Shown: piece after piece, positions 4,362-22,774 of the stretch
Numbering within the stretch: the stretch's first letter is position 1
How the letters are laid out: each line of letters opens with the position of its first letter
IMG/VR virus record: IMGVR_UViG_3300030104_000540
Coordinates: 1 to 60,033 of that record
DNA from: a virus
Taxonomy: Duplodnaviria; Caudoviricetes
Length of the DNA stretch: 60,033 nucleotides
Strand: one strand, 5' to 3'
Program-made: the position numbers and the translations under genes
Notes under the pieces: model-generated
What the model was told of the DNA's origin: nothing
The model's input: the letters and a program-made list of their open reading frames with translations, nothing else
The model's database searches: none

Positions 4362-4389
4362 ATTATACTCTTTTTACGCAGCTTGTCAA
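4362..4389 (-). promoter_or_regulatory. Sigma70 promoter driving the late arm (variant A)
   Basis: TTGACA-N16-TATAAT; positional equivalent at 58803-58831. Confidence 0.75.
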
Positions 4390-4484: not shown

Positions 4485-4553
4485 TGTGGTTACCACTTCA
4501 ATTTCCTAATCTGTGTATTTATACAAGCATACGTACCCCATAGGGTGGCATGG
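4485..4553. other. Conserved non-coding block, candidate genome terminus or packaging site (variant A)
   Basis: TGTGGTT, TTTCCTAATCTGT, ATACGTA and GGGTGGCA(TGG) shared in order with 58876-58954; lies between the divergent arms. Confidence 0.45.
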
Positions 4554-4817: not shown

Positions 4818-4831
4818 GTCCGATGTCGGAC
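4818..4831. promoter_or_regulatory. Palindrome GTCCGATGTCGGAC, copy 1
   Basis: 6-bp arms, 2-bp centre; six copies in the early region. Confidence 0.85.
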
Positions 4832-4894
4832 AGTCTGCATCATCAGAAACAGATCAATCATAGATAGATTCTCTATCAAAAACTGACGGCAAAA

Positions 4895-5016
4895 TGACTC
4901 CGTTTGAACATTTTTTTATGGTTTCATTTGAAATGTTTTAAGCACCCTGTAACGAAGTGAAGGGTGTTAAAACCTTTCAATTAAATGAAACCAAAAAAAT
5001 GTAACAAACGGAGTCA
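4895..5016 (+). promoter_or_regulatory. 122-nt imperfect hairpin occluding the SD of the first early gene
   Basis: TGACTCCGTTTG (4895-4906) pairs with CAAACGGAGTCA (5005-5016); inner stems TGGTTTCATTT/AAATGAAACCA and CACCCT/AGGGTG. Confidence 0.8.
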
Positions 5017-5019
5017 AAC

Positions 5020-5643
5020 ATGAAAAATTCAACAACAACCACTTCCAAATTAAACAACGGTTTAATTCAAAACTTAGCTAAAGCTAAGTCAAATGCTGAA
5101 AAAGGTTCAATTCTCTCTAGAGAGAATACACGTCTACTGTCTCTTGAAAAGAGACAGTTTGAAGCCCAAACTATGTTTGGAGGTTTTTGGTTTTCACTTG
5201 GAAAGCTCATCTCTGATGAGTTGAATGCAAGTGGAAAGTTGAGACTTTCCACAGCTCAGCTTAAAAAGCTGAATATCACTAAAATTGAACGTCAAAGACG
5301 TTCAGATGCTAAACTTTTCTTTGAAAATTATGATGCTTTACAATCTCTTACAAAGAGATTTAATAACGTATCAGCTTTGCTGAAAGAATTTAATAAACAG
5401 AACTCAAAGAGTTCTGAAACATCTACTAAAGTAGATGAAAAGTCATCTTCTAAAGAAGATGTTAAGTCCGATGTCGGACAAAGTGATAACAACGAAGTTG
5501 TTAAAGTAGGTACTTTTCAAGTACCTAATGTAAAGCAAATGGCTGAAGCCATTGTAATGCAAGCCATTGAAAATGGCTTAGAAGTTAAAGAGCTAAAAGC
5601 TCTTAACGCTGAAATTGCTAACCAAATCAAGGCTTTAGCTTAA
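5020..5643 (+). CDS. First early protein (variant A), putative DNA-binding protein
   Basis: GGAG SD; helical N-domain, S/K/E linker, helical C-domain; remote counterpart of 59273-59917. Confidence 0.75.
   Translation: MKNSTTTTSKLNNGLIQNLAKAKSNAEKGSILSRENTRLLSLEKRQFEAQTMFGGFWFSLGKLISDELNASGKLRLSTAQLKKLNITKIERQRRSDAKLFFENYDALQSLTKRFNNVSALLKEFNKQNSKSSETSTKVDEKSSSKEDVKSDVGQSDNNEVVKVGTFQVPNVKQMAEAIVMQAIENGLEVKELKALNAEIANQIKALA
5466..5479. promoter_or_regulatory. Palindrome GTCCGATGTCGGAC, copy 2 (inside first early gene)
   Basis: Exact copy, read as KSDVGQ. Confidence 0.85.
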
Positions 5644-5649
5644 CCATTA

Positions 5650-5710
5650 CTAACATAGATGTAATACATATTGAATGTATATGAAATATGTATTACATCT
5701 TAAATGTTAG
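5650..5710. other. Long intergenic stem-loop
   Basis: AGATGTAATACATATT/AATATGTATTACATCT 16-bp stem plus CTAACAT/ATGTTAG. Confidence 0.75.
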
Positions 5711-5726
5711 TTAGAAAGGAAAAATT

Positions 5727-6017
5727 ATGAAAATTACATACTGTAAACCTGACCCATTACTTGATCCAAAAAATCGCTCTTACTATGTTATACCTAAGTA
5801 TAACCATAGTAAAGTCCACAAAGACTTTGCTGACTACGTCAGCCAGAAAGTAGACGTAGTCTACGTTAATGGCGAAGCCATTGAGTATGGAACAATGGAT
5901 TACTACGTAAAAGATGTAGTTAGCAATTTCCCTGCTCAGTATGAGCAGTTAGAAGTTAATCAGCAAATGAAAGAATTTGCTCAATATGACACAGGATTTA
6001 GACCTGTTATGAAATAA
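5727..6017 (+). CDS. Early hypothetical protein
   Basis: AGAAAGGA SD; ORF. Confidence 0.7.
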   Translation: MKITYCKPDPLLDPKNRSYYVIPKYNHSKVHKDFADYVSQKVDVVYVNGEAIEYGTMDYYVKDVVSNFPAQYEQLEVNQQMKEFAQYDTGFRPVMK

Positions 6018-6023
6018 CAGTAA

Positions 6024-6037
6024 GTCCGATGTCGGTC
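6024..6037. promoter_or_regulatory. Palindrome copy 3 (GTCCGATGTCGGTC)
   Basis: One mismatch to the consensus. Confidence 0.75.
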
Positions 6038-6045
6038 TTAACAGC

Positions 6046-6078
6046 AAGGCTGTAGCAGTAATGTTACAGCCTTTTTTT
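6046..6078 (+). terminator. Rho-independent terminator
   Basis: AAGGCTGTAGCA-GTAA-TGTTACAGCCTT followed by a T tract. Confidence 0.85.
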
Positions 6079-6101
6079 ATGCCTAAAGAAAGGATACCAT
6101 T

Positions 6102-6305
6102 ATGAGAAATAAATATATACTATCAGTGTATGCAATGTTTGCTTATGCAATGGCTAACATTATCACAGGTTTTTATACATTATCATATGCAAATACCGTT
6201 GTATTTGCTCACATGCAACCATATGATGCGATTGTATGCACGATTAGTGCAATCTTTATTGCATGGGGTACTATGATAATAGGAGTTGTAGTGCTAAAGT
6301 ATTAG
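6102..6305 (+). CDS. Small two-TM membrane protein
   Basis: AAGGA SD; two hydrophobic segments. Confidence 0.65.
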   Translation: MRNKYILSVYAMFAYAMANIITGFYTLSYANTVVFAHMQPYDAIVCTISAIFIAWGTMIIGVVVLKY

Positions 6306-6366
6306 TAATATAACAATAAATAATATATATCTATTTATAGATATATTATTTATTTTATATATTACT
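6304..6366. other. AT-rich long inverted repeat
   Basis: AGTAATATA/TATATTACT outer stem and AATAAATAATATAT/ATATATTATTTATT inner stem. Confidence 0.7.
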
Positions 6367-6372
6367 TATTAA

Positions 6373-6386
6373 GTCCGATGTCGGAC
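6373..6386. promoter_or_regulatory. Palindrome copy 4
   Basis: Exact copy just upstream of the SD of 6406. Confidence 0.85.
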
Positions 6387-6405
6387 ATAAACAGAAAGGG
6401 TTATT

Positions 6406-7047
6406 ATGTTTAATACAGTTAAAGAAGCATGGGCTGAAGTGGGTGGCTTATCCAAGCCATCTAAAATGCCATCATTTGGTTATTCATTAAGTGCATTTAA
6501 ATGCAAGGTAGGTAGTAAGCTGAGGAATATTGCTAACTCTACATGTAGTGATTGCTATGCATTGAAGGGAAGGTATGTCTTCCCCAATGTACAAGAAGCA
6601 TTGGATAGGAGAATGGATAGGCTATTGAACAATCCTAATTGGATTGAAGCTATGTCATTTTTAATCAATCACTATTCCACTAAAGGTGGAGTGTTTAGGT
6701 GGCATGATAGTGGAGATTTACAATCTCTTGATCACCTACAAAAGATTGTAAAAGTTGCTGAGCTTACACCTAGTGTAAGGCATTGGCTACCAACAAGAGA
6801 GGTAGCAATGGTGCGAGATTACCAAAAGCAATACGGAGAGTTTCCTAGCAACTTAGTTGTTAGGATAAGTGCTACTATGATTAATGGTTTACCCCATAAG
6901 TTTCATAGGCATACTAGCACAGTATCAACAGCCAAAGATTTTGATTTGGGTTGGACTTGTCCTGCTAGTAAACAAGGTAACAAGTGTGACACGTGTCGTG
7001 CTTGTTGGGATAGTAATGTTGAAAATATTACTTACCCTTTACATTAA
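6406..7047 (+). CDS. GP88-family protein (Cys-rich, radical-SAM-like)
   Basis: SKMP, C-x11-CSDCYA, FRWHDSGD and C-terminal CxxCxxC motifs. Confidence 0.75.
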   Translation: MFNTVKEAWAEVGGLSKPSKMPSFGYSLSAFKCKVGSKLRNIANSTCSDCYALKGRYVFPNVQEALDRRMDRLLNNPNWIEAMSFLINHYSTKGGVFRWHDSGDLQSLDHLQKIVKVAELTPSVRHWLPTREVAMVRDYQKQYGEFPSNLVVRISATMINGLPHKFHRHTSTVSTAKDFDLGWTCPASKQGNKCDTCRACWDSNVENITYPLH

Positions 7048-7081
7048 GAGTGTTATAGTATATAACATAAACATTAACTAA

Positions 7082-7095
7082 GTCCGATGTCGGAC
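7082..7095. promoter_or_regulatory. Palindrome copy 5
   Basis: Exact copy upstream of an AAGGAG SD. Confidence 0.85.
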
Positions 7096-7117
7096 ATAAT
7101 TGAAAGGAGCATATATT

Positions 7118-7390
7118 ATGTTTTTCTTATATTCGTCTAAATTAACTAACGATAAGATGGGAGTAAGACGTAGTCTTATTCTTGAAATTAATGATGTCAA
7201 AGTTATCAATTTTAAAACTATGACATATTGGAGAAAGAGATTGTTCTCTTACTCTAGAACACTCAACAAGCCTGTGGGCTTTACTCAAGGTGATTGCTTT
7301 AACAGTTATCACTTCTTTAACTTCACATTACATGTGGAGAAAAGAAGAAACAGGCAATCTGTGAGAAAGCTGTGGCACTTCGCAGGTTAA
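7118..7390 (+). CDS. Early hypothetical protein
   Basis: AAGGAG SD before ATG 7118. Confidence 0.7.
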   Translation: MFFLYSSKLTNDKMGVRRSLILEINDVKVINFKTMTYWRKRLFSYSRTLNKPVGFTQGDCFNSYHFFNFTLHVEKRRNRQSVRKLWHFAG

Positions 7391-7394
7391 TGTG

Positions 7395-7550
7395 ATGTCT
7401 AAGATGCGTAACCCTATTGCTAGAATGTTGCACATAGCGACACGCAATAGGGTTATGGGTGTAGACAAAAAGTTTAACAAGAAAAAAGAAAGGCAGAAAA
7501 ATGCAAAGTCAAAACTTAGGAAAGATGCGAGTAAACAAGAAGATGTTTAA
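7395..7550 (+). CDS. 51-aa basic protein (RNPIAR...KKFNKKKER)
   Basis: Manual translation; resembles small basic NPxA phage peptides. Confidence 0.5.
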   Translation: MSKMRNPIARMLHIATRNRVMGVDKKFNKKKERQKNAKSKLRKDASKQEDV

Positions 7551-7641
7551 CAAAGACAAAAGAAAAGAGTACAAGCATAACAGACGTTTACAACGTCAGC
7601 TTAAACAAACAACACAACTAAAAGCATGGAGACAAGCATGA
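7501..7641 (+). CDS. 46-aa basic protein
   Basis: Manual translation; GAAAGG SD; ATGA overlap with the next gene. Confidence 0.5.
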   Translation: MQSQNLGKMRVNKKMFNKDKRKEYKHNRRLQRQLKQTTQLKAWRQA

Positions 7642-7871
7642 GTGATACACCGACAGTAGCACAGACTAACAGAGAAGCATTGTATGAGATAATGCAATTG
7701 CTAGGCGATGAGTATGAGAGTGGTTACATAGGTAACTATGAGAGATGGGGTGATGAAACCACATCTTACATATGGCATGGCAACAAGAAATATGGTGGCT
7801 ATCGTGGAGAAGACAGCCACAGATTATTAATCACAGCAATACTATTGCTAAAGAAAAAGTTAGGAGAGTAA
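7638..7871 (+). CDS. Hypothetical protein
   Basis: GGAG SD before ATG 7638; ORF track. Confidence 0.65.
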   Translation: MSDTPTVAQTNREALYEIMQLLGDEYESGYIGNYERWGDETTSYIWHGNKKYGGYRGEDSHRLLITAILLLKKKLGE

Positions 7872-7873
7872 TT

Positions 7874-8455
7874 ATGAAAATTAAAAAGCTAATCAAACTA
7901 TTAGAATGCATTGAGGGTGACTACAATGGCAAACTACCACAGGACATGTATCATCTAGGCACGTACACAAAAGAGGGTGGCACGTGGGAAGCTATTGCTG
8001 AGATGGATTTTGTACATGCTATGAGGGCATTTAAAAGGGTAATCAACTATGATGTAAACCTAGAGGTATCTGTATCACAGACTAATCAGATAATGAAACT
8101 AGAGCAAGAGGTGTCACACTTGAGAGAGAGAGTAAAAAACTTGAATAAACAAGCTCATGCCTTGCAAGAATCAAACATTCAGATGAAAGAACGTAACCAA
8201 GACTTACACAAAAGGCTTGAGGAGAAGTCTTACAGAGAAGTGACAGCACCACGTTATGTATTCAGCGAGATACCTAACGACTGTGATGGTCAAAGGTTTG
8301 TTGATGATGCAAAAAACTATTTCAACAGAAGCAGATACAATATGAGAGTGCGAGGTCAACACATCAAGGAAGAATACAAAGGCACAGGTGCTACGGCATA
8401 TGGGCAAAGCATAGAACAATCAACACACTTACGTGTATACATAGAGGAGAAGTAA
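7874..8455 (+). CDS. Coiled-coil hypothetical protein
   Basis: AGGAG SD before ATG 7874; ORF track. Confidence 0.7.
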   Translation: MKIKKLIKLLECIEGDYNGKLPQDMYHLGTYTKEGGTWEAIAEMDFVHAMRAFKRVINYDVNLEVSVSQTNQIMKLEQEVSHLRERVKNLNKQAHALQESNIQMKERNQDLHKRLEEKSYREVTAPRYVFSEIPNDCDGQRFVDDAKNYFNRSRYNMRVRGQHIKEEYKGTGATAYGQSIEQSTHLRVYIEEK

Positions 8456-8457
8456 AA

Positions 8458-8661
8458 ATGAAGAATGAATATTTAAAAGAAACATTTAGTAATGATAAAG
8501 TAATCGTATCAAAAGTAGATATAGATGCAATGCATAGATACATAAGCAGTAAGGATTCAGAAACTATATCTGCTATTGTCTATGATGCTTTAACGTCTAT
8601 GGATATTAAACATGATGGTTTTGGTTGGGATATAAATGTAACTGTAGAACAGGAGAAGTAG
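8458..8661 (+). CDS. Hypothetical protein
   Basis: SD; packed operon. Confidence 0.65.
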   Translation: MKNEYLKETFSNDKVIVSKVDIDAMHRYISSKDSETISAIVYDALTSMDIKHDGFGWDINVTVEQEK

Positions 8662-8856
8662 ATGAATAAAATTTTCTTAACATACGAGCAATCTCAATGG
8701 CTATATGTCGTTTGGGTAGATGGTGTAGCTAATTACTACCCCACCTATGCAAAAGCAAAAGAATACTATGACGTTTGTACGGATTATGATAACGTAGTGT
8801 TGGATTGTTGGGATACATTTCATAAAAGGCTAAGAACAATAGAGGAGAAAGAATAA
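8662..8856 (+). CDS. Hypothetical protein
   Basis: SD; packed operon. Confidence 0.6.
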   Translation: MNKIFLTYEQSQWLYVVWVDGVANYYPTYAKAKEYYDVCTDYDNVVLDCWDTFHKRLRTIEEKE

Positions 8857-9077
8857 TGGAAGAAGAAATTATTGACATGCTAAACATACAGCATAGAATA
8901 GAAGAGTTAATGCAAGAGGGCAAGGCATCAAAACTCAGAGGGTGGTCAGCGAGAGACATTTCAGATCGCATCACCTCTGAGTGGCGAGACGAGAAAGCAG
9001 GAGAGTATGCTTTCAAGTACATAGCCTACAATTATTCAACAGCTAAGTCCGACATCGGACATAAGAAAGGAGACTAA
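8856..9077 (+). CDS. Hypothetical protein
   Basis: TAATG overlap; SD. Confidence 0.65.
   Translation: MEEEIIDMLNIQHRIEELMQEGKASKLRGWSARDISDRITSEWRDEKAGEYAFKYIAYNYSTAKSDIGHKKGD
9047..9060. promoter_or_regulatory. Palindrome copy 6 with reversed centre (GTCCGACATCGGAC)
   Basis: Reverse complement of the core within the same TAA...ATAA flanks; upstream of the SD of 9079. Confidence 0.85.
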
Positions 9078-9078
9078 C

Positions 9079-9444
9079 ATGAAAGCATATTACATAGACC
9101 CAATACTACAGTTTGTAGCAGAGGTAGACTTTATACCTGAATCAAACCTGCACGGATTTAGAAAGATATATGAGTGGATTGATGCAGGAACATTTGATGT
9201 AGTCAATCTCAATAGTTACGGAGATGGTATGTACGTTGATGATGAGGGATTACTCAAGAGCAGTAACCATTTCTTTAAAGTTCCTGTGTGGAATGGCGAA
9301 GAGTATGTCCAGCAGATGTATGCAGGTAAGGCACTCATACTAGGTGTAGATAGTGATGGAGACAGCGATGATGTAAAAGGTTTATCTTTTAAATTGTTGC
9401 AAGATAGAATAGAATTTTTAGGAGAGAAGGAGATACGACAATGA
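9079..9444 (+). CDS. DUF3846-like phage protein
   Basis: YVDDEGLLK and G-x-ALILG motifs. Confidence 0.65.
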   Translation: MKAYYIDPILQFVAEVDFIPESNLHGFRKIYEWIDAGTFDVVNLNSYGDGMYVDDEGLLKSSNHFFKVPVWNGEEYVQQMYAGKALILGVDSDGDSDDVKGLSFKLLQDRIEFLGEKEIRQ

Positions 9445-10679
9445 ATGTATTAAGTTTATTTGATGGTATGTCTTGTGGACAGATAGCACTTAACAGAGCA
9501 GGTGTGAAGTATGACAAGTATTATGCATCTGAAGTTGACAAGTATGCTATTAAAGTTGCTAATGTTAATTTTCCAAACACGATACAGTTAGGAGATGTAT
9601 CTTATATTAACTCTCATGGTTCAGATGAACTACATGAAGATGAGATAGACCTACTTATGGGTGGTTCACCTTGTCAGGGATTTAGTGTAGCAGGTAAACA
9701 ACTAAACTTTGATGACCCACGTAGCAAACTATTCTTTGAGTTTGTCAGACTAAGAGATAAGCTAAAGCCTAAGTACTTTCTTATGGAGAATGTACCTATG
9801 AAACAAGATTCGCAGGACATTATTACAAAGTATTTAGGTGTTGAGCCTATCACTATAAACTCTAGTTTATTCTCTGCACAGAATAGAAAGAGATTGTATT
9901 GGACTAACATTCCCTTTGATATACCTACAGAAGACAAAGGTATAGTGTTGCAGGATATACTAGAAGATGGTATTGCTAATGATGCTATGACTAACAAAGA
10001 TAGCAAGTCACATTGCATTACTGCACGATACAATGGTGCAGTATGGTGGAACAGTATCCAACGTAAGCAACGTACTATGGTACAAGTGGGCGAAGCTGAT
10101 AACATCAAAGGCTTTGATAGTATCAAACGTATCTACTCACCCAATGGGAAAGCTCCCACACTTACCACTATGCAGGGTGGGCATAGAGAACCAAAGGTAG
10201 CTACAGATATTGTAACATTTAATCCTAACCAAGAAGCTAAGATACAGAAGATGAATGTTACAACGGACAAAGCCAACTGTCTTACAGAAGCCATAGGCAG
10301 AGGTGGTAGTAGCTCTGAGTATCTGACTAGTGTTAAGAAGAAAACACTAGCACTTAAATCCATAGGTAGAATTGTTAATCGTAGGCTAGATGAGGATGGT
10401 GTCCGTAAAGACAACCAACTTGAGCTACCTCTATCCAAACAGTTAGAGATAAGTGATAGTGATAAGTCCAACTGTCTCACAACTGTAAGCAAAGACAATG
10501 TAGTAGTAGAGGGTATGCAATGGAGAAAGCTAACACCAATAGAGTGTGAGCGATTGCAAACTGTACCTGACAACTACACCAATCACGTGTCCAATAGCCA
10601 ACGATACAAGATGTTAGGTAATGGTTGGACAGTTGATGTGATTGCACACATAATGAAAGGAATAAAGAATGTGGACTAA
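9441..10679 (+). CDS. DNA (cytosine-5) methyltransferase
   Basis: SLFDG, GGSPCQGFS, ENV, QNRKRLYW, RKLTPIECERLQ, YKMLGNGW. Confidence 0.95.
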   Translation: MNVLSLFDGMSCGQIALNRAGVKYDKYYASEVDKYAIKVANVNFPNTIQLGDVSYINSHGSDELHEDEIDLLMGGSPCQGFSVAGKQLNFDDPRSKLFFEFVRLRDKLKPKYFLMENVPMKQDSQDIITKYLGVEPITINSSLFSAQNRKRLYWTNIPFDIPTEDKGIVLQDILEDGIANDAMTNKDSKSHCITARYNGAVWWNSIQRKQRTMVQVGEADNIKGFDSIKRIYSPNGKAPTLTTMQGGHREPKVATDIVTFNPNQEAKIQKMNVTTDKANCLTEAIGRGGSSSEYLTSVKKKTLALKSIGRIVNRRLDEDGVRKDNQLELPLSKQLEISDSDKSNCLTTVSKDNVVVEGMQWRKLTPIECERLQTVPDNYTNHVSNSQRYKMLGNGWTVDVIAHIMKGIKNVD

Positions 10680-10947
10680 ACCAAAAGCAAAGCGATGGCA
10701 GGATGCTGAACTATACGAAGTGTATTGGCAAGGCAAACTGCCACGCAGTGGATTCAGAAAGACTTGGGTTCTAACCAAACGTAAATGGGTTTGGATACGT
10801 GAAGCAGGTAATGTATACAAAGACATACACAAAATGTCTGTTGCCAATTTTAATCTGTTACCTCATTGGACTGATGAGAAGTGGCAGAGTATGAGAAAGG
10901 ATTGGCAAGAGGGTAACTTTAAACCAATGAAAAGGAGGAGAAGATGA
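10669..10947 (+). CDS. Trp/Arg-rich hypothetical protein
   Basis: SD; overlap with both neighbours. Confidence 0.65.
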   Translation: MWTKPKAKRWQDAELYEVYWQGKLPRSGFRKTWVLTKRKWVWIREAGNVYKDIHKMSVANFNLLPHWTDEKWQSMRKDWQEGNFKPMKRRRR

Positions 10948-11378
10948 TGATAGCTGAAGCATTATTTTGTTTAGCACTCAACGTGTATCACGAAGCTAAG
11001 AACCAATCTTTAATTGGACAGATAGCAGTGGCACAAGTTGTTATTAACAGAGTACACGATGAACGATACCCTGACACAATATGTGAAGTGGTGGAGCAAG
11101 GACCAACTTACAGTTGGAAGCCTGACTTTCCAATTCGTAACAGATGTCAGTTCAGTTGGTACTGTGATGGTAAAAGTGACACACCTAGAGACCCAGATGC
11201 ATGGGAAGAAGCTATGCTAGTAGCTAGTGGTGTATATCATGGTCAAGTGTATGATCTAGTAGAGGGTGCAACACACTACCACGCATACTATGTAACACCA
11301 TCTTGGGCGAGTAGTAAGACATACATTACACGAATAGATGACCACATATTTTACAGATGGGATATTAATTATGATTGA
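10944..11378 (+). CDS. Cell wall hydrolase, SleB/Hydrolase_2 family
   Basis: CLALNVYHEA, VINRV, CQFSW, GATHYHA, HIFY. Confidence 0.92.
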   Translation: MMIAEALFCLALNVYHEAKNQSLIGQIAVAQVVINRVHDERYPDTICEVVEQGPTYSWKPDFPIRNRCQFSWYCDGKSDTPRDPDAWEEAMLVASGVYHGQVYDLVEGATHYHAYYVTPSWASSKTYITRIDDHIFYRWDINYD

Positions 11379-11535
11379 TGACATAAATAAATTTAAACTA
11401 TCAGACTTTATACAAAGAGTGACTGAAATGTATTTGTATAATTTAGAACACTACCCTGAAGAGAACCCAACAATAGATGGTGCATTTAGGGAAGTCTTAT
11501 TACAAACATCACAGGAGTTGACAGACAATGAATAA
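11371..11535 (+). CDS. Hypothetical protein
   Basis: ORF track; ATG at 11371. Confidence 0.55.
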   Translation: MIDDINKFKLSDFIQRVTEMYLYNLEHYPEENPTIDGAFREVLLQTSQELTDNE

Positions 11536-11815
11536 ATTTTCAGAAAAAAGAACAGGTGATATAACTGAAATAACTGCCTGTAACCTTTTGTTAAAAGAAG
11601 GATATGAGGTCTTTAGAAATTTATGTTGCACAGGTGCAGTTGATATAGTTGCTATAAAAGATAATAAAGTATATCTTATTGATGTAAAAACACCTAATGT
11701 ATATAAGAAAAAATTGTATTATTCTAAGCCTACTGCAATTCAAAAAGAATTGGGGGTTATTTTATTAGGTGTATATGAAAATAAACTCCATTGGAAGGAG
11801 AGTGAGGATGAATAA
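11528..11815 (+). CDS. PD-(D/E)XK nuclease (Hjc-like)
   Basis: G-x2-TE, GYEVF, DIVA, IDVKT. Confidence 0.7.
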   Translation: MNKFSEKRTGDITEITACNLLLKEGYEVFRNLCCTGAVDIVAIKDNKVYLIDVKTPNVYKKKLYYSKPTAIQKELGVILLGVYENKLHWKESEDE

Positions 11816-12119
11816 ATTTATATATGATTGTTGGAATGTCGTTATGAATTATGAACGCAATCCACTAAGTAACATACAAGACCTACACGTTAGGCATATG
11901 GTCATGCAGCTTCTTGCATGGATGTGGTGCATAGCATTCTCTATGTGGGTAGGTAGTATGTGGGTATTTGGTTTGACTGCTGTCATACACATTATACTTA
12001 TCGTTGCTATTGTAATGACAGTAGCAGTATTTGAAACAGCTAAACGTAAATCAACTTACTTTGACCATTGGTATAAGGAACGTGGTCTAGGCAGAGGAAA
12101 TGGGGGTGAACATGAATAG
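11808..12119 (+). CDS. Membrane protein (NPL...H...Q-x-LAWMW)
   Basis: Two TM segments; ATG 11808 with SD. Confidence 0.7.
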   Translation: MNKFIYDCWNVVMNYERNPLSNIQDLHVRHMVMQLLAWMWCIAFSMWVGSMWVFGLTAVIHIILIVAIVMTVAVFETAKRKSTYFDHWYKERGLGRGNGGEHE

Positions 12120-12618
12120 ATTTATTATAGAAGATACACCTTTGGGAATTGCACAATCATTGTGTGACCAACACGTGGTGAAGATGCCACTAGAAGAAGC
12201 ACAGATGTTGTGCACTGCACTGTGGCATCATGCACCTGAGTTTGCAGAGGAGAATAATTTGTACAAACCTGTGCATCAAAAACATCCATGTACATTGTGG
12301 GCTATGGAAACTAGGTCAAATTATTTCTTTGCTCTTTTATTGTATAAGTTTATGTTAAATGAGTATACAAAAAGATACAATAAAATACATGGTGCAAGTA
12401 AACATGAACATGTATTAGCATGTACGTGGGCAATAGAGAGCATACCCTATGGTAAACAAACTAAACACCCACAATGTTTTAGTGGGATGGATGAACTAAA
12501 GACTGATGAGTTCTATCCTGTCAAAGCCTATCGTGCTTTCTACATAGCTGACAAAGCTAGGTTTGCACGATACAGATACACACAACAACCTACTTGGATG
12601 AAAGGAGTAGCATTATGA
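12112..12618 (+). CDS. Pyrimidine-dimer DNA glycosylase family protein
   Basis: CDQHVVKMPLEEAQML, HPCTLW, EYTKRY..H, AYRAFY. Confidence 0.8.
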   Translation: MNRFIIEDTPLGIAQSLCDQHVVKMPLEEAQMLCTALWHHAPEFAEENNLYKPVHQKHPCTLWAMETRSNYFFALLLYKFMLNEYTKRYNKIHGASKHEHVLACTWAIESIPYGKQTKHPQCFSGMDELKTDEFYPVKAYRAFYIADKARFARYRYTQQPTWMKGVAL

Positions 12619-12896
12619 AAGATACAAAGAACCAATTTAATAAAGATATATTAGTAACGGAAGAGCAACGTATGAGATTCCTACAGCTGCATAACAAATT
12701 AAAGGATGCAGTAGAGTATGCTTCAGAGTGTAAGGACTTACGTCTATCTGACTTAGCTGTGATGGAAGAGTTGGTACACCACTTACATACATCGTTAAAC
12801 TTTTCACCAACGAAAAATCCTAATACAGATCAACCAAATATGTATTCAGATTACGTATTATCTTCAGATGAAACGGCTTGGGAACGTGCATACTAA
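12615..12896 (+). CDS. Hypothetical protein
   Basis: AAGGAG SD; ATGA-type overlap. Confidence 0.65.
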   Translation: MKDTKNQFNKDILVTEEQRMRFLQLHNKLKDAVEYASECKDLRLSDLAVMEELVHHLHTSLNFSPTKNPNTDQPNMYSDYVLSSDETAWERAY

Positions 12897-13263
12897 TACA
12901 TGGACAAAGGATGAAGTTGTTGCATTTTTGCAACATGCTTATAGTAAATTTGAATACAGAAATGTTGGTGTTATCTCACAAATTATCTATGAACTACAGC
13001 CACCACGATTAGAATACAAAGATATATTTAAGTGGACATGGAGTGACATAGACGATGAGTGGGATGCAGGTTTGTTGCATACCCTTGAACAGCAGAGGAA
13101 TGACTTTGGTTTTCAAGATTATATCGCACCACAAATCAGACCAATCAAAGGCGAGTATGTACCTTATACTAAATTTAGATTCTCTAAAGTAGCACGAAGA
13201 ATTATTAATGACACACCTACACTGAGAAAAGATTTACGTATGAGGTACTTGCCTTTAAGTTAA
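12868..13263 (+). CDS. Hypothetical protein
   Basis: ORF track; start uncertain. Confidence 0.6.
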   Translation: MKRLGNVHTNTWTKDEVVAFLQHAYSKFEYRNVGVISQIIYELQPPRLEYKDIFKWTWSDIDDEWDAGLLHTLEQQRNDFGFQDYIAPQIRPIKGEYVPYTKFRFSKVARRIINDTPTLRKDLRMRYLPLS

Positions 13264-13301
13264 AAATATGATATTTAATCTGTTAACAGAAAGGATGACA
13301 C

Positions 13302-14105
13302 ATGGACATAAATACTATACTACAAGATAATGATGTACCTATAGGTAGTACAAAGAGAATGGACTGTCAGTTTTGTGGTGGTAAAAATACTTTTACTATT
13401 ACAAACAGTATGGGTTCTATTTTATTTAATTGTTATAAAGCTAGTTGTTCAGTTAGTGGTAGTAGAAGAATAAACCTTACAGTAGAACAGATAAGAAATG
13501 TAAAAAAACCTACTGTAGATGATAAGTTTGTACTGCCTGACTATATTGTACCAATTAGGGAAGATAGATTTAAACAGCCTAAGTATGGAGCTAGTCTTTC
13601 GCTTTCATGGAAAGAGAAGATATGGAAAGACCATTGCCTAAATGATGTTAAAGAAGACAGGGCTGTGTTCTTAATAAAAGATAGTGAGAAGGGTGTAGTT
13701 GTAGATGCAATTGGTGCATCCACAGACAAACGATTACCTAAGTGGAAAAGATATGGTAGTAGCAGACATCCTTTCGTAGCATGGAATGGTAAAGGTGGCG
13801 ATGGTGGTGATAATAGTTGTGTGTTAGTAGAGGATTGTTACAGTGCATGTACAGCTGCAAAGCATGGCATCACAGGTGTAGCATTGCTAGGTACAAATCT
13901 ATTAGAAGAACATAAAAGATTTCTGTGTCATAACTTTGACACAGTTGTAGTTGCACTTGATCCTGATGCACTACAGAAAACTTTACAGATAAGAAAAGAG
14001 TTGCAAAGTTGGGTGCGTACTGCTAAGGTACTGCGACTAACAGACGACTTAAAGTATGAAGAAGAAATTGATATTAATAACTTAAAGGAGATGATATGGA
14101 ACTAG
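13302..14105 (+). CDS. DNA primase (Zn finger plus TOPRIM)
   Basis: CQFC...CYKASC; VLVED; ALLGT; VALDPDA. Confidence 0.9.
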   Translation: MDINTILQDNDVPIGSTKRMDCQFCGGKNTFTITNSMGSILFNCYKASCSVSGSRRINLTVEQIRNVKKPTVDDKFVLPDYIVPIREDRFKQPKYGASLSLSWKEKIWKDHCLNDVKEDRAVFLIKDSEKGVVVDAIGASTDKRLPKWKRYGSSRHPFVAWNGKGGDGGDNSCVLVEDCYSACTAAKHGITGVALLGTNLLEEHKRFLCHNFDTVVVALDPDALQKTLQIRKELQSWVRTAKVLRLTDDLKYEEEIDINNLKEMIWN

Positions 14106-15319
14106 CACTATTAAGAAGTTTAATGAATAAGAAGTTCTACGATGATCATCGTGGAGCAAGGTGTCCTAACAGATTATTTAGTAAGGATGCACAGAAAGTA
14201 AAGTCTGTTATAGATAAGGCTATGCATAGGTATGAGAGAACTGTAACACCTGATGAAGTAGAAGCATTATTTGTGTCAGGTAATCCTAGTATGACTACAG
14301 CACAGAAGAATGCATACATATCTATGTTCAGACAGGTTAAGAAAGAACAACCAATGGGAGATGATGTAGCACAGGAAGTGTTATCCAAACTTTTCCAACA
14401 GGTTATTGGTGAGGACATTGCTAATCTAGGTTTTGATTATGTGAATGGTGCTAAGAGTTCTTTAGAACCACTACGTAATATACTTGAGCAATATAGTGAT
14501 GACTTCACACCTACTATGAATATTGAGTGGGCTGATATAAGTATTGAAAACCTGCTGGACAAGAATGATCTTGAAGCAAGATGGACATTTAATATACCTA
14601 CACTATGCAGAAAGGTAGAGGGTATCAATGCAGGACATTTAATAGAGGTAGGTGCTAGACCTAATACAGGTAAGACATCTTTCCATGCTAGTCTTATAGC
14701 AGGTCCGGGTGGGTTTGCATCACAGGGTGCTAAGTGTATTGTGCTTTGTAATGAAGAAGGCTTTCATAGAGTAGGTGCAAGGTATCTTACAGCAGGTACA
14801 GGCATGAACCTACACCAAGTTAAGAATGACATGCAGAAAGCTAATGAAATATATGCACCATTGCGTAAGAATATATTTATTAAAGACACTACAGGTTACG
14901 ACATGAGTTGGGTAGAGTCTGCTGTCAAGAAAGAAAGACCTGATATTGTAGTGCTTGATATGGGTGATAAGTTTGCTACACACAAAGGATATGCTAGACC
15001 TGATGAAGCATTGAAAGCATGTGCTGTACATGCAAGACAGATAGCAAAACAATATGATTGTGCTGTGTTATATATGTCACAGTTAAGTGCAGAAGCAGAG
15101 GGTAAGGTTATACTTAATCAAAGTATGATGGAAGGTAGCCGTACAGGTAAAGCTGCAGAAGCAGACTTGATGGTACTCATTGCCAAGAACCCACAGGTAG
15201 AAGGGCAAGAAGAAGAGGATGCACAAAGACATTTAAACATTGTCAAGAATAAATTATCAGGATGGCATGGTAGTGTACACTGCGAGTTAGATTATTTAAT
15301 TGCAAGGTATAACGCATGA
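14096..15319 (+). CDS. Replicative DnaB-like (SF4) helicase
   Basis: ARPNTGKT, NEE, VVLD, SQL, EAD, KNK. Confidence 0.92.
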   Translation: MELALLRSLMNKKFYDDHRGARCPNRLFSKDAQKVKSVIDKAMHRYERTVTPDEVEALFVSGNPSMTTAQKNAYISMFRQVKKEQPMGDDVAQEVLSKLFQQVIGEDIANLGFDYVNGAKSSLEPLRNILEQYSDDFTPTMNIEWADISIENLLDKNDLEARWTFNIPTLCRKVEGINAGHLIEVGARPNTGKTSFHASLIAGPGGFASQGAKCIVLCNEEGFHRVGARYLTAGTGMNLHQVKNDMQKANEIYAPLRKNIFIKDTTGYDMSWVESAVKKERPDIVVLDMGDKFATHKGYARPDEALKACAVHARQIAKQYDCAVLYMSQLSAEAEGKVILNQSMMEGSRTGKAAEADLMVLIAKNPQVEGQEEEDAQRHLNIVKNKLSGWHGSVHCELDYLIARYNA

Positions 15320-15768
15320 GAGATTTATTTGGATTTAAATTAAGGCAAAAACCTGTTGTTGAAGATACATTGGTATGCATTAAATGCAATACAACACAAC
15401 CAATAGATCAATTCAACGCAATGAACTATGCTAGTGATAAACCTTCTGAGATAAAGAGGACATGCAGAACTTGCATGAGAAACCAATCTAACTTAGTTAA
15501 ACAACTAAAGAAAGAGAACCCATATCCTAATGAACATTATAAATGTCCTATATGCGACAGGGATATAGAAGAGATAGGCAAGTATAACCAACCACGATTG
15601 CAGAATTGGGTGTTAGATCATTGCCATGAGACAGGCACGTTCAGAGGGTGGCTATGTCATCACTGTAACGTAGGTCTAGGTGGATTCAAAGATAGCTTGA
15701 CAAGATTAAAAAAAGCTGTAGAATACATGACTAAACATAAGGAGACAGTAAATGAAGATAGTAATTGA
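15316..15768 (+). CDS. Endonuclease VII-like HNH nuclease
   Basis: CPIC, LDHCH..G..RGWLCHHCN. Confidence 0.9.
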   Translation: MRDLFGFKLRQKPVVEDTLVCIKCNTTQPIDQFNAMNYASDKPSEIKRTCRTCMRNQSNLVKQLKKENPYPNEHYKCPICDRDIEEIGKYNQPRLQNWVLDHCHETGTFRGWLCHHCNVGLGGFKDSLTRLKKAVEYMTKHKETVNEDSN

Positions 15769-17776
15769 CGTAGAAAATACAGTACAAAAGCGTGAGGGTA
15801 AGCTACACCTTGATCCTTTTGAAGAGAAGAACGAATTAGTTATGGTAGGTGCATTGACTGAGACAGGAGATGAATACCTTATAAGAATGAGTGATAACAA
15901 TGCATCTGTAACAATACAATCTATACTAGATGAGACTACAGTAATGATAGGACATAATATTGTTCACGATTTAATGTGGTTATGGGAGTGTGGGTTTAAG
16001 TATGATGGCAAGGTATTTGATACCATGCTTGGTGAATATATACTACAAGAAGGACAGAAAGAATCCTTGACACTAGAGATGTGTGCAATGAGATATAATC
16101 TTGAGACTAAGAAACAAGATACACTCAAAGAATATTTTAAGAAAGGATATTCAGTTGCTGACATACCACCTGATGAGTTATCTGATTACTTATCTGCTGA
16201 CTTACATGCTACACAGCAATTAGCAAATGAGATATACACAAAGCTATCATCAGATGCATACAGTAACTTGTCTAATACAGTTGATCTTACTAATGATGTG
16301 GCACTATGTCTAGCTAGGATATATCGTGTAGGTTTTAATGTAGATACAAAACAACTAGACTCTGTTCGTGCTGATTTTACAAAAGAAAAACAAAAGATAG
16401 AAGAGGAGTTAATAAAAGAAACAAGATACTTCATGGGTGATACACCTATTAATTTAAATAGCCCTGAACAATTATCATGGCTTATATATTCTAGAAAACC
16501 TAAAGATAAACATGATTGGGTTATGACATTCAACTCTCATATGCCAAAGGAAGAGTTTCGTAGTGCAGTGAATGCTAAAGCAGATATACTAAGAAAGACA
16601 AAAGCAGAGCAGTGTCATGTGTGTCATGGTCATGGTAAGATAAGAAAGACTAGAAAGGATGGCACACCTTATGCAAATGAGAATAGATGTGTAGAGTGTG
16701 ATGGATTAGGATATAAGTTTATTCCTACATCTGAGTTAGCAGGTATGGGTTTCACACCACCAACTGCAAAGTGGATATCTGCAAATGGATTTACTACAAG
16801 TAAGAATAGTTTACAGTACCTAAAGTCTGTTGCTCGTCAAAAGAATATGGATAGAGCAGAGAACTTCTTAGGTAAGGTTATTAGATTATCTGCTTTAGAT
16901 AGTTATCTCTCTTCATTCGTTGAGGGTATATCTAATAATATAAAGTCTGACGGAAAGCTACACGTTAGATTATTACAACATCGCACAGCGACAGGTAGAT
17001 TTAGTGGAGCAGACCCTAACATGCAGAACATGCCAAGAGGTGGTACGTTTCCTGTTAAGCGTGTGTTCGTGTCACGATGGGATGGTGGTAAGATATTAGA
17101 AGCAGACTTCGCACAGTTAGAGTTTAGAACTGCTGCATATTTATCACAAGACGAAGTAGCAATGATGGAGATAAACAATGGGTTTGACGTACATAACTAT
17201 ACTGCCAAGATTATTTCTGAAGGTGGTCAAAAGATTAGTAGGCAGGAAGCAAAAGCACACACCTTCGCACCACTCTACGGAGCTACAGGGTTTGGGAGGT
17301 CACCTGCTGAAGCAACGTATTATAAACAGTTCACGGAAAAGTACAAAGGCATCGCACTTTGGCATTCCAGATTGGCTAAAGAAGCTCTAAACGATGGCAG
17401 AATAAAGACACCATCAGGAAGGTCATTTGCTTTTCCTGATGTGCAGAGAAGGTTTAATGGTTCACCCACACACTTTACGCAGATAAAGAACTTTCCTGTA
17501 CAGAGTTTTGCAACAGCAGATATTGTTCCTGTTACGTTGTTAGAGATTGAAAAAGAATTACAAGGTATGCAATCATGTATAGTAAATACAGTGCATGACA
17601 GTATAGTAATAGATGTACACCCTGATGAGGTTGATAGCGTACTTGATGTAATAAAAAATACTAATGATAAATTGAAAATAATTGTTGACAAACAATTCAA
17701 AATAGATTTAAATGTACCATTAGTATTAGAAGCAAAGATAGGTAATAATTGGCTTGACACGAAAGACGTTACCTGA
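15752..17776 (+). CDS. polA: Family A DNA polymerase with inserted DnaJ-type zinc finger
   Basis: DVE exonuclease site, TGRFS, DFAQLEFR, RQEAKAHTFAPLYG (F762 type), VHDS; CHVCHGHG and CVECDGLG. Confidence 0.97.
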   Translation: MKIVIDVENTVQKREGKLHLDPFEEKNELVMVGALTETGDEYLIRMSDNNASVTIQSILDETTVMIGHNIVHDLMWLWECGFKYDGKVFDTMLGEYILQEGQKESLTLEMCAMRYNLETKKQDTLKEYFKKGYSVADIPPDELSDYLSADLHATQQLANEIYTKLSSDAYSNLSNTVDLTNDVALCLARIYRVGFNVDTKQLDSVRADFTKEKQKIEEELIKETRYFMGDTPINLNSPEQLSWLIYSRKPKDKHDWVMTFNSHMPKEEFRSAVNAKADILRKTKAEQCHVCHGHGKIRKTRKDGTPYANENRCVECDGLGYKFIPTSELAGMGFTPPTAKWISANGFTTSKNSLQYLKSVARQKNMDRAENFLGKVIRLSALDSYLSSFVEGISNNIKSDGKLHVRLLQHRTATGRFSGADPNMQNMPRGGTFPVKRVFVSRWDGGKILEADFAQLEFRTAAYLSQDEVAMMEINNGFDVHNYTAKIISEGGQKISRQEAKAHTFAPLYGATGFGRSPAEATYYKQFTEKYKGIALWHSRLAKEALNDGRIKTPSGRSFAFPDVQRRFNGSPTHFTQIKNFPVQSFATADIVPVTLLEIEKELQGMQSCIVNTVHDSIVIDVHPDEVDSVLDVIKNTNDKLKIIVDKQFKIDLNVPLVLEAKIGNNWLDTKDVT

Positions 17777-17783
17777 TATAACT
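17754..17783 (+). promoter_or_regulatory. Sigma70-type promoter upstream of the SSB-like gene
   Basis: TTGACA-N17-TATAAC(T). Confidence 0.65.
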
Positions 17784-17807
17784 AGAACACTTTAGAAAGG
17801 AGTTTAT

Positions 17808-18698
17808 ATGAATATAGATACTAGCTTAAATAAGTTTGCCGATATGGCACAGAAAATGGGTATGGGAGTAGACATAACCCAAAAGAAACAGACAGCACAA
17901 CTTGCTCGTCTTAAAATACAACACTCACCTATCATGGGTGAGGTTGAAGTCAAGGGTAAAAAGACTCAAGCTGCTATAGTCAATGGTGGTTCTTATAGAA
18001 TTGATGACTTAGCAAGTGAGAGTGTATTCTACTCTGACGATGTAACAATCAGACCCTATGTACAAAGATTTATGTACAAGAAGTTTGTCAAGCCTGAGTC
18101 AGGCAAGGGTTTCTACGTTAAGACTATCATGGCAGACAACTTAAATGTTGATCTGAAGGACAACATGGGTGGGTTTAACTGTGGAAAACCAGCAGGTTTT
18201 GTAAAAGATTATCAAGCATTACCTGTAAAGACAAAGGAACTCTTGAAGAGTATTAAAAGAGTGAGGGTACTGATTGGAACACTATCAGCAGGGTCAGTTC
18301 TGAATGCTGATGGTAATGATGTCATGGAGATTGGAGACTTGCCATTTATTTGGGAAGTGGACAACCGAGATGCATTCAAGATTATGGGAGAACCCATATC
18401 TAAAATAGGTGGCAGGAGACATCTTCCTGTGCAGTACAAAATTAAGTTAGGTTCTGAACAACGAAAGTTGCCTAACGGAAATGCGTACTACCTACCTACT
18501 GCAACTTTACAAGACGAAGTGTTGGAAGTAGAAGATAGCACACAAGATCATTTCTCTGACTTTATGCAATGGATTGAGAATTATAACTCTTATATCTTCA
18601 ATGCATGGAATGATAAAGCAAAGCCTGAAGAGCTATCTAAGTCTGATAAAGATGTGGTATCAGAACTTGTTGATGTTGATGATGAAGTACCATTCTAA
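17808..18698 (+). CDS. Putative single-stranded DNA-binding protein
   Basis: Position after polA; acidic tail ending DDEVPF. Confidence 0.7.
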   Translation: MNIDTSLNKFADMAQKMGMGVDITQKKQTAQLARLKIQHSPIMGEVEVKGKKTQAAIVNGGSYRIDDLASESVFYSDDVTIRPYVQRFMYKKFVKPESGKGFYVKTIMADNLNVDLKDNMGGFNCGKPAGFVKDYQALPVKTKELLKSIKRVRVLIGTLSAGSVLNADGNDVMEIGDLPFIWEVDNRDAFKIMGEPISKIGGRRHLPVQYKIKLGSEQRKLPNGNAYYLPTATLQDEVLEVEDSTQDHFSDFMQWIENYNSYIFNAWNDKAKPEELSKSDKDVVSELVDVDDEVPF

Positions 18699-19552
18699 TG
18701 AACTCAGCAGAAGAACTAAAGGTACACAGATACTTAGATAAGGCAGTTAAAGGTACTGCAACAATGAGTGATGACACAATTGAGCAGGTTGTGTCACACA
18801 TACGAGACAGCTTGAAGAAACAATTCTCTCCTCAACAGAAGGACTTTCGTATCAGGATGTCCAACATTGGCAGACCTTACTGTCAACTTTGGTTCTTAAA
18901 AAACAAACCTGATTCACGTATACACCCACCTGCTAAGATGATAATGAATTTTATGATGGGCGATATTGTTGAAGCAGTATTCAAAGGGATACTACGTGAG
19001 TCAGGTGTTAAATACGAAGACGATAATAGTGAAGTGTCTCTAGAAATAGAGGGCAACAGTATTAAAGGAACGTATGATTTATCTATCAATGATTCAGTTG
19101 ATGACATTAAATCTGCATCTATGTGGTCTTACACAAACAAGTTTATATCATTTGATACTATCAAAAACAGTGATCCGTTTGGTTATGTAGGACAACTAGC
19201 AGGTTATGCTAAAGCTGCCAAGAAGAAAGTTGGTGGTTGGTGGGTTATTAATAAGAACAATGCAGAGTTTAAATATATACCTGCTACTACAATGAACCTT
19301 GATGAAGAGATAGGCAAAATTAAAAAGACATTCAAACGTCTTGAAGAAAATAAATTTGAAAGGTGTTATGAAGCAGAAGATGAAACATTCAGAGGTAAAC
19401 ATACAGGTAATAAAGTCCTCAGTAAGAATTGTAACTTTTGTGAGTTTCGTTTTTCATGTTGGACTTCTCTTGTAGAGAAACCACAGATGGCATCAAAGGC
19501 AAAAGAACCTAGGATGATGTCCTATGTTTATGAAAAAAATGTCAGCATATAG
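18698..19552 (+). CDS. PD-(D/E)XK (Cas4/RecB-like) exonuclease
   Basis: RMSNIGRPYCQLW, GTYD, DIKS, QLAGY, CNFCEFRFSC. Confidence 0.88.
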   Translation: MNSAEELKVHRYLDKAVKGTATMSDDTIEQVVSHIRDSLKKQFSPQQKDFRIRMSNIGRPYCQLWFLKNKPDSRIHPPAKMIMNFMMGDIVEAVFKGILRESGVKYEDDNSEVSLEIEGNSIKGTYDLSINDSVDDIKSASMWSYTNKFISFDTIKNSDPFGYVGQLAGYAKAAKKKVGGWWVINKNNAEFKYIPATTMNLDEEIGKIKKTFKRLEENKFERCYEAEDETFRGKHTGNKVLSKNCNFCEFRFSCWTSLVEKPQMASKAKEPRMMSYVYEKNVSI

Positions 19553-19994
19553 TGCTAGACAGATAGCACGAAAGAATGGGTATAGGAGTGGTTTAGAAGA
19601 TACTCTTGCTACTTACCTAAAAGAATTAAAGGTAGCTTTCACATATGAAAAGCTAAAGATAGAATGGGAAGACCTTGCTTATCGCACCTATACCCCTGAT
19701 TTTGTATTAGACAATGGTATAATAATAGAAACCAAGGGAATATTTAATGCTTTGGATAGACGTAAACATAAGGCTATCAAAAAGCAACACCCCAAATTAG
19801 ATATTCGTTTTGTGTTTACAAATAGTAGAAGAAAATTACGTAAAGGTGCAAAGTCCTCTTACGCAGAGTGGTGTATCCGATATGGGTTTCGTTATTGTGA
19901 TAGGGTTGTTCCTGAAGATTGGCTAAAAGAAAAAGGAAAAAGATTAACATTAACATTTATACCTTTTAAAGGTAGAAAAGTAAAAAGGAGTTAA
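19524..19994 (+). CDS. T7 gp3-like endonuclease I (Holliday junction resolvase)
   Basis: YRSGLE, YTPDF, IETKG, DIRFVF. Confidence 0.95.
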   Translation: MFMKKMSAYSARQIARKNGYRSGLEDTLATYLKELKVAFTYEKLKIEWEDLAYRTYTPDFVLDNGIIIETKGIFNALDRRKHKAIKKQHPKLDIRFVFTNSRRKLRKGAKSSYAEWCIRYGFRYCDRVVPEDWLKEKGKRLTLTFIPFKGRKVKRS

Positions 19995-19997
19995 CAT

Positions 19998-20348
19998 ATG
20001 AAAAAAATAGATACTAAATTCTTAAAGCCTGAAGATTTTATAATTAATGTGAGACCTCAATTAGACAGTAAAAGAGCATGGACAGGTCAAGTTGAAATTA
20101 ATATTATGTCTTCAAAAGAAAATGGCTTAACCCATTTTGACAACGAAGCACTGTTTCATTTATGTACATGCATGTCTGCTATTGTTCCTATGATGGAGCT
20201 AGACAAAGATTTACTATATGAAATAGAAGACTTTATAAAAGAGATGAAGAAAAAAGACACAAGAGCTAATGATAAGTTGACAGTGCAAAGTAAAGATGGT
20301 AATGTGATCACATTAGATTTTAAATCAGATACTGAAGGGAGTGCTTAA
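19998..20348 (+). CDS. Hypothetical protein
   Basis: AGGAG SD; C-terminal NVITLDF. Confidence 0.7.
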   Translation: MKKIDTKFLKPEDFIINVRPQLDSKRAWTGQVEINIMSSKENGLTHFDNEALFHLCTCMSAIVPMMELDKDLLYEIEDFIKEMKKKDTRANDKLTVQSKDGNVITLDFKSDTEGSA

Positions 20349-22761: not shown

Positions 22762-22774
22762 AAAGGAGAATATT

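Follow-up and report, generated by a model that had tools for sequence, protein, structure and literature searches.

We describe a family of short palindromes at the early end of a marine phage genome, found in a DNA stretch of 60,033 nucleotides (nt) (IMG/VR record IMGVR_UViG_3300030104_000540). This stretch, hereafter the window, is the entire virus record, with a CheckV completeness of 100%. The phage is a marine podovirus of the HMO-2011 type, judged from its capsid protein, which shares 75% identity with the one in Roseobacter phage CRP-345 and 72% with the one in Puniceispirillum phage HMO-2011. The palindrome GTCCGAYRTCGGAC occurs in six copies at 4818-9060, one of them with a mismatch, and nowhere else in the complete 60-kb genome. 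Among relatives the position of such sites is conserved while their sequence is replaced, the sites are symmetric to the dyad, and their occurrence is linked to the family of the first early gene (gene 5020). Comparison of the genomes suggests that the six palindromes are this phage's version of an early-gene control signal present in many HMO-2011 relatives. We favor, as a somewhat probable explanation, that they are operators for a dimeric phage regulator and that the first-gene product is its most likely identity. The palindromes would be double-stranded DNA operators bound by a two-fold symmetric, phage-encoded protein that governs the rightward early operon over its first ~4 kb, most likely as a brake on early transcription units. 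With one copy upstream of gene 5020 and another within it, the protein would also control its own gene. We infer both the binding of a protein to the palindromes and repression, rather than activation, as the direction of its effect.

The six copies are far from a chance occurrence. A scan for GTCCGANNTCGGAC with at most one mismatch gave exactly 6 matches in 60033 bases (Table 1), where 0.01 are expected, and six were reached in none of 100 shuffles. All copies lie inside 4.2 kb of the 60-kb genome and, because the window is the whole virus record, the statement that there is no copy elsewhere is valid genome-wide. Hidden degenerate copies were not found, since allowing up to 3 mismatches added only three places (306, 15545 and 37910) against 3.65 expected. 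The original prediction, made from the letters of the sequence, had listed these six copies and none elsewhere, with three just before Shine-Dalgarno (SD) sequences, one about 190 nt upstream of gene 5020 and one in its S/K/E-rich linker. Each of these observations is confirmed by our measurements.

The series of palindromes starts in a divergent control region that has a consensus leftward promoter on one side and the first rightward gene on the other. Copy 2 spans codons K149-Q154 (KSDVGQ) of gene 5020, in a region modeled as disordered (residues 131-169). Copy 3, which the original prediction had assigned to no context, begins 6 nt past the stop codon of the gene at 5727-6017 and ends 8 nt before a hairpin with a run of T. 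An SD of the AAGG/GGAG type lies between dyad and ATG for copies 4, 5 and 6. Copy 6 in addition overlaps the final codons of an open reading frame (ORF) at 8856-9077, which end in AKSDIGHKKGD and a stop, with the same use of reading frame as the copy inside gene 5020.

Table 1. Palindromes and accompanying features at the early end of the window
Feature	Position	Strand	Remarks
Conserved first leftward gene, 71 amino acids	4028..4243	-	Context; rejected as the protein setting the palindrome sequence
Consensus leftward promoter TTGACA-16-TATAAT	4362..4389	-	Divergent control region; conserved in relatives
Palindrome copy 1	4818..4831	.	Divergent control region, 188 nt before ATG of gene 5020
Long near-perfect hairpin, ~120 nt	4895..5016	+	Between copy 1 and first gene; -56.3 kcal/mol, z -9.65
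First early gene (gene 5020), 207 amino acids, candidate binder	5020..5643	+	Helical N-domain, disordered S/K/E-rich linker, two C-terminal helices; predicted homodimer
Palindrome copy 2	5466..5479	.	Within gene 5020; S150-D-V-G153 of disordered linker
Palindrome copy 3	6024..6037	.	Right arm GGTC, one mismatch; between stop of gene 5727-6017 and terminator-like hairpin
Terminator-like hairpin with T-run	6046..6073	+	Directly after copy 3
Palindrome copy 4	6373..6386	.	Ends 19 nt before ATG of GP88-like gene (6406-7047)
Palindrome copy 5	7082..7095	.	Ends 22 nt before ATG at 7118
Palindrome copy 6	9047..9060	.	Centre CA, not TG; ends 18 nt before ATG of DUF3846 gene (9079-9444)

The arrangement recurs in relatives. 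A scan with the conserved neighboring gene gave 80 loci from 292 related stretches. The 38 loci with at least 2 kb of early-side DNA were examined and the other 42 left out (single loci carry L numbers below). By the criterion of exact arms and at least three copies, a palindrome family is present in 17 of the 38, with about 11 different sequences of 13-17 bp. Over the initial ~4 kb of the early operon, 4-7 copies are present in each of these 17 genomes as well as in CRP-345 and HMO-2011. The copies fall within 3.3 kb for 6 of 6 in a complete 55-kb relative and for 6 of 7 in a 50-kb relative. CRP-345 has GTCCAAYRTTGGAC at six places, four of which are at the early end, including one within gp01 and one that precedes this gene by 234 nt. 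Five copies of AGTCCGACAGCGGACT surround gp74, the first gene of HMO-2011, and none is inside it. Three relatives fetched via the GP88-like gene show the same arrangement, L006 and L008 with GTCCAAYRTTGGAC and L007 with GTCCCATATNGGAC. When the early region was compared with cultured phages at the nucleotide level, only one weak match of 120 nt appeared.

The placement of 92 copies in the 17 genomes points to early genes as the target of control. More than half (52) stand before an SD and a start codon, at a median distance of 24 nt and mostly at 17-34 nt, and the remaining copies are upstream of the first gene (16), inside it (10) or elsewhere (14). The site equivalent to copy 1 of the window is occupied in 16 of the 17 genomes. 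Three roles had been proposed for a protein binding these sites, namely replication initiator, early-gene regulator, and DNA-entry or partition factor. With 52 of 92 copies just upstream of start codons, the role of early-gene regulator fits best. In 9 of the 10 genomes with an in-gene copy, that copy is the genome's own palindrome, and the encoded peptide shifts along with it (SDVG, SNVG, SNIG, SHIG, SDIG). Therefore it is the DNA and not the peptide that is conserved. The in-gene copy of L091 keeps its arms, is one base shorter (GTCCGA-AG-TCGGAC) and uses another frame. In HMO-2011 and several lineages, the second copy is found after the first gene, not in it.

A variant with a GGTC right arm (…TCGGTCTTA) is recurrent. 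It is seen in copy 3 of the window, in L005 (5796 and 6441) and in L109 (784-2655), where the first three copies are of the GGTC type and the two pre-gene copies are GGAC. The outer symmetry of this variant is lengthened (TAAG/CTTA) at the price of one inner mismatch.

The pattern of change between lineages speaks for a DNA-binding protein with two-fold symmetry rather than for an RNA hairpin. The arms change symmetrically, from GTCCGA..TCGGAC to GTCCAA..TTGGAC or to ATCCGA..TCGGAT, the last with the outer G/C turned to A/T in L106 and L107. In five lineages complementarity extends up to a single central base (6/7, 6/7, 6/6, 4/4 and 6/6 copies). The pairs next to the dyad centre cannot be used by a hairpin, and this favors a two-fold symmetric protein on duplex DNA. 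The asymmetric centre is found in both orientations in 5 of 9 lineages, and in the window it is TG five times and CA once.

A host factor as the binder is unlikely from the same comparison, because closely related phages differ in palindrome and orthologous genes are preceded by different palindromes. Thus L047 differs from L059 and L074 in every copy of the palindrome, with proteins that are mostly 67-93% identical. Early genes that are orthologous between L060 and L059 (71% and 58% identical) are preceded by different palindromes, at identical offsets. One palindrome is shared by a Roseobacter phage and uncultured relatives of the window phage (L026, L028).

The candidate binder that we put forward, tentatively and with rather less than even confidence, is the product of gene 5020, a fast-evolving protein of unrecognized fold and a predicted dimer. 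Its family comprises 131 clusters at 50% identity, contains no known domain, and includes CRP-345 gp01 and HMO-2011 gp74. The hidden Markov model of the family matches 11 of the 38 loci, all 11 of which have palindromes, and among the 27 loci without a match 6 have them (Fisher p about 1e-5, by a hand calculation that ignores kinship). Carriers and non-carriers are interleaved in the tree of the neighboring gene. The neighboring gene of L060 is even identical to those of L064 and L065, which have neither the first-gene family nor palindromes. No other early family than that of the first gene is present in 11 of 12 site-bearing genomes, and the next (10 of 12) is not in the window.

The model of the protein has a confident helical N-domain. 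The homodimer model scores 0.78, against 0.02 for the best of three controls. Of 30 solved homodimers 20 attain this mark, as does 1 of 23 solved monomers. Three runs share at least 57% of contacts, with a predicted local distance difference test (pLDDT) value of at least 72 for the partner. A conserved basic helix (I-x-x-x-R-R-S-E/D-A) follows a G/N turn in the family, and together they could form a helix-turn-helix. First-gene identity tracks palindrome class. By eye, Gln or Arg in the basic helix goes with G or A at position 5 of the half-site, since 7 of 7 Q-types have G, a correspondence confounded by relatedness.

Several observations weigh against this explanation. The first-gene protein matches no DNA-binding family in Pfam, PHROGs, PDB sequences or Foldseek. 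The only fold row over the core of the N-domain is the DNA-binding domain of KorB (1r71_A/8qa8_A), a weak match with Z 4.7 and a root-mean-square deviation of 3.4-3.6 over 71-72 aligned residues (model residues 54-133), which is below the tool's noise bar for helical proteins. Elsewhere, Foldseek against the PDB gave nothing, a wide VIA search gave Z of at most 5.0, and profile searches of PDB sequences and Pfam gave nothing meaningful. BFVD returned one unnamed 205-residue protein, and the Atlas yielded nothing beyond unnamed viral clusters and a cluster in which 29% of the members have DUF3102. For a distant subgroup of the family there was nothing in viral contigs, and 6 loci were found in the metagenome scan. 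The window and L047 share an identical 14-mer with first genes that are 35% identical over 135 residues, and L080 and L090 share a palindrome with first genes that are 55% identical. Six palindrome-bearing relatives have an unrelated first gene (hhalign probability 0.09%), and therefore such sites can exist without the first-gene family. The largest jumps involve exchange of the entire early module, so that covariation cannot single out one gene. A scan for sigma-70-type promoters upstream of the copies was not clearly enriched (29/66 against 110/340 random places), and because of this the geometry of an operator at a promoter is unproven. Finally, the pre-gene copies have direction-specific flanks (TAA...ACATAA in the window, ...ACTTTAA in others). 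A symmetric dimer does not need these, and they leave room for an RNA element or a polymerase promoter. They are missing from the copies upstream of and inside the first gene.

The interpretation given beforehand for gene 5020 is sustained in part. As a dimeric binder it has a predicted homodimer and a family tied to the sites in its favor, but its fold matches nothing above noise and there are six exceptions. The covariation between first gene and palindrome that had been suggested as a check is seen only loosely. Identity tracks class, but whole early modules move together and there are exceptions such as the window and L047.

An element acting in the transcript would be either a processing or stability hairpin of the 5' untranslated region (UTR) or a nut-like antiterminator site, in which case the first gene would resemble lambda N. 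Some of the layout agrees with this. The 52 copies at 17-34 nt before start codons are likely in 5' UTRs, copy 3 immediately precedes a terminator-like hairpin, and the dyads of L080 and L043 are followed by a T-run. The first site also lies upstream of a variable first gene, an order comparable to that of nutL and N in lambda. However, the window element folded as RNA has a stem of only 5 bp with a 4-nt loop, at -7.7 kcal/mol (z about -2), and the complementarity reaches positions too close to the centre for hairpin pairing. Both orientations of the loop sequence are found within genomes, unlike the conserved single-orientation loop of lambda N/nut, and a generic hairpin has no need of identical copies within a genome. 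We consider an action in the transcript improbable.

Still less probable, in our judgment, is that the palindromes are promoters for an unrecognized phage or virion RNA polymerase, either as N4-like extruded hairpins or as a T7-like signal of 20-25 bp. The direction-specific flanks, the fixed short distance to SD and ATG, and the lineage-specific copies limited to the early end would suit such a promoter. There is no annotated polymerase, and large virion ORFs of unknown function (1154 and 787 amino acids) are present. But Pfam, PHROGs and PDB sequence searches found no RNA polymerase among the scanned ORFs, and the named Atlas clusters nearest to the 1154-residue protein are LPD38/LPD3 polyvalent virion proteins. 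Moreover, the flanks are missing around the copies upstream of and inside the first gene, the centre flips, and consensus sigma-70 promoters are present in the control region. The original description of a phage with no RNA polymerase and no recognizable repressor agrees with these results, since Pfam and PHROGs also gave no known repressor family among the scanned ORFs.

The sites could instead be operators whose binder is a different early protein of the phage, or with lower likelihood a protein of the host, and not the product of gene 5020. We regard this as unlikely, though it ranks first among the alternatives. It draws on identical palindromes with very different first genes (the window and L047), on the six site-bearing relatives with an unrelated first gene, on the lack of a recognized DNA-binding fold in the gene 5020 protein, and on whole early modules moving together. 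Against it, no other early family is common to the site-bearing genomes, the next best being missing from the window, and a host factor is at odds with palindromes that differ between closely related phages. The neighboring leftward gene stays 90-94% identical while the palindrome changes completely.

The 71-residue product of that gene was itself considered as the binder and rejected, being this similar between genomes with unrelated palindromes. It has 272 homologs with invariant KSVKL, H-PHS and E-AM--EG, and a three-helix model (pLDDT 81) with no fold match.

The repeats might also serve mainly as recombination joints for early-gene cassettes, or as a replication, partition or DNA-entry signal. 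Genes 2 and 3 are in reversed order between the window (5727-6305) and L006 (7006-7662), with palindromes at the joints, and early modules are mosaic even where neighboring genes are identical. The analogy to lambda O, which concerns the in-gene copy, was raised in the original prediction. It breaks down at its defining feature, because gene 5020 contains one dyad and no iteron cluster. The second copy of HMO-2011 and of several lineages is located past the gene. The copies extend over 4 kb, unlike a clustered origin, and recombination alone would not preserve the two-fold symmetry of sites whose arms change symmetrically. The phage has replication genes of the T7-like type, for which no initiator is needed. 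We give this role the lowest probability of all.

The control region contains other signals. The 3' arm of the long hairpin holds the SD of gene 5020 (ACGGAGU), paired with ACUCCGU. Relatives have a smaller hairpin with a similar apex (AAGCAC...GTGTT) at this position. In Rfam no family reached the gathering score in the window, and the long hairpin had only meaningless microRNA-like matches. Upstream of copy 4 there is an AT-rich hairpin and a promoter-like TTTATA-18-TATATT (6334-6363). In a transcript from this promoter, the dyad would occupy roughly +3 to +16. The two together are the one good case of a promoter joined to a stem-loop (6306-6363). A block GTGGTTACCAC...CCTAATCTGTGTATTT followed by a C-rich stretch (window 4486-4520) is present near letter-for-letter in the control regions of all relatives compared, including CRP-345 and HMO-2011.

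A second repeat, (A)CATTTAAGTG, has three copies just upstream of the 71-residue gene in several relatives. It was observed in L039, L048, L055, L064 and L065, in the first 150 nt beside this gene, and in the control region of HMO-2011. The window has a single related stretch, ACATTTAAGTA, at the equivalent place. This repeat might control the leftward operon as a signal of its own. L064, L065 and L044, which are without the first-gene family and exact palindromes, have another repeat, AATACTTCCATTTATGGGTA, in three copies with partial dyad symmetry. In L080 and L043, though not in the window, the dyad runs into a T-run (GTCATAGNCTATGAC-GTTTTT and TCCCAAGTTGGGA-TTTTT), and these copies may double as terminators.

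Plus-strand genes at 5020-23517 encode a C5 DNA methylase, primase, DnaB-like helicase, family A DNA polymerase, endonucleases and ribonucleotide reductase, and the genes for terminase, portal, capsid and tail are on the minus strand. The C5-cytosine DNA methyltransferase gene (9441-10679, plus strand) starts one gene past the last palindrome, and no link to the palindromes was found. The structural block ends with the largest ORF (23520-26984, minus strand, 1154 residues), for which Pfam, PHROGs and the PDB gave no match. The named Atlas clusters closest to it have LPD38, LPD3 and MuF-C domains of polyvalent virion proteins. The guanine-cytosine content of the phage is 36%. Neither a transfer RNA in the window nor a recognizable integrase in the phage was found.

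HMO-2011-type phages are a dominant, globally distributed marine viral group, as stated in the literature on them (PMC9038755). A full-text literature search for HMO-2011 with promoter or palindrome gave no published account of gene timing in this group, and the main text of the principal comparative paper, supplements aside, has 0 occurrences of 'promoter' and 'repressor'. The palindromes represent a concrete early control signal that can be recognized by computer. The named candidate regulator exists in cultured members (CRP-345 gp01 and HMO-2011 gp74), hence bench tests of the idea are possible at once. The variants of the operator, about a dozen, form a natural series that could reveal how a protein of unknown fold reads specificity, and the finding would account for the high variability of the first gene and the early region. 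It is possible, though doubtful, that the first early gene of many HMO-2011-type phages founds a new, structurally unrecognized family of dimeric DNA-binding regulators. Their specificity would diversify rapidly, together with private operators of 13-17 bp, in the manner of immunity systems or of KorB-like global silencing, and one operator would be kept in the linker-coding DNA to loop or block the regulator's own gene.

Dispersed phage operators are a known kind of system, in which many copies of a short site are spread over several transcription units, as are the six in the window. KorB, a ParB-family protein of IncP plasmid RK2, offers a likeness outside phages. It is a dimeric global repressor with about a dozen identical palindromic OB operators, some at promoters and others far away or inside genes, and it consists of a DNA-binding domain, a linker and C-terminal helices. 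The multiple palindromic sites, domain layout and predicted dimer are shared here, with only a weak match of the fold (Z 4.7). The gene 5020 protein, 15 relatives and 75 family members differ from KorB in having no N-terminal cytidine triphosphatase (CTPase) domain of ParB and no ParB/KorB match in Pfam, and the element is a phage, not a plasmid.

In lambda, the ori iterons lie inside gene O as a cluster of four with an AT-rich region at one place. The likeness is a binding-site-like sequence in the linker-coding part of the gene for the proposed binder. In our case it is a single dyad, one of six copies over 4 kb (10 in-gene copies among 92 in 17 genomes), and the gene 5020 protein has no Phage_rep_O match in Pfam and no PHROG match. 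N4-type hairpin promoters have a stem of 5-7 bp, a 3-nt loop, and a fixed sequence and orientation. By contrast, the window has a 5-bp stem, a 4-nt loop, a flipping centre and no virion RNA polymerase that we could find.

The promoter-early stem-loop (PeSL) cassettes of T4-type phages combine a sigma-70 promoter with a terminator stem-loop (Arbiol et al. 2010, PMC2839356). As that paper describes them, they are small repeated regulatory modules that punctuate a hyperplastic early region, where cassettes are gained, lost and reordered (PMC2839356), and our palindromes are similar in this respect. They differ in that the PeSL, in the description of its parts given there, includes no separate short dyad, whereas the core here is a 14-bp lineage-specific palindrome, and an adjacent promoter is clear for only some copies of the window and relatives.

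A further parallel in phages is that of the stoperators of Cluster A mycobacteriophages. According to the passages that define them, stoperators are asymmetric, oriented with transcription, spread genome-wide and bound by a monomeric immunity repressor (PMC9283540). The sites in the window, in contrast, are palindromes with the centre in both orientations, lie within ~4 kb, and belong to a phage with no recognizable repressor or integrase. The stoperators of L5 and Bxb1, as these sources portray them, likewise consist of a single short site repeated many times in the gaps between genes, over several transcription units (PMC6550527, PMC9283540). In the same accounts, the site sequence diversifies among related phages along with the phage regulator (PMC6550527, PMC9283540), a likeness to the replacement of palindromes that we see among HMO-2011 relatives.

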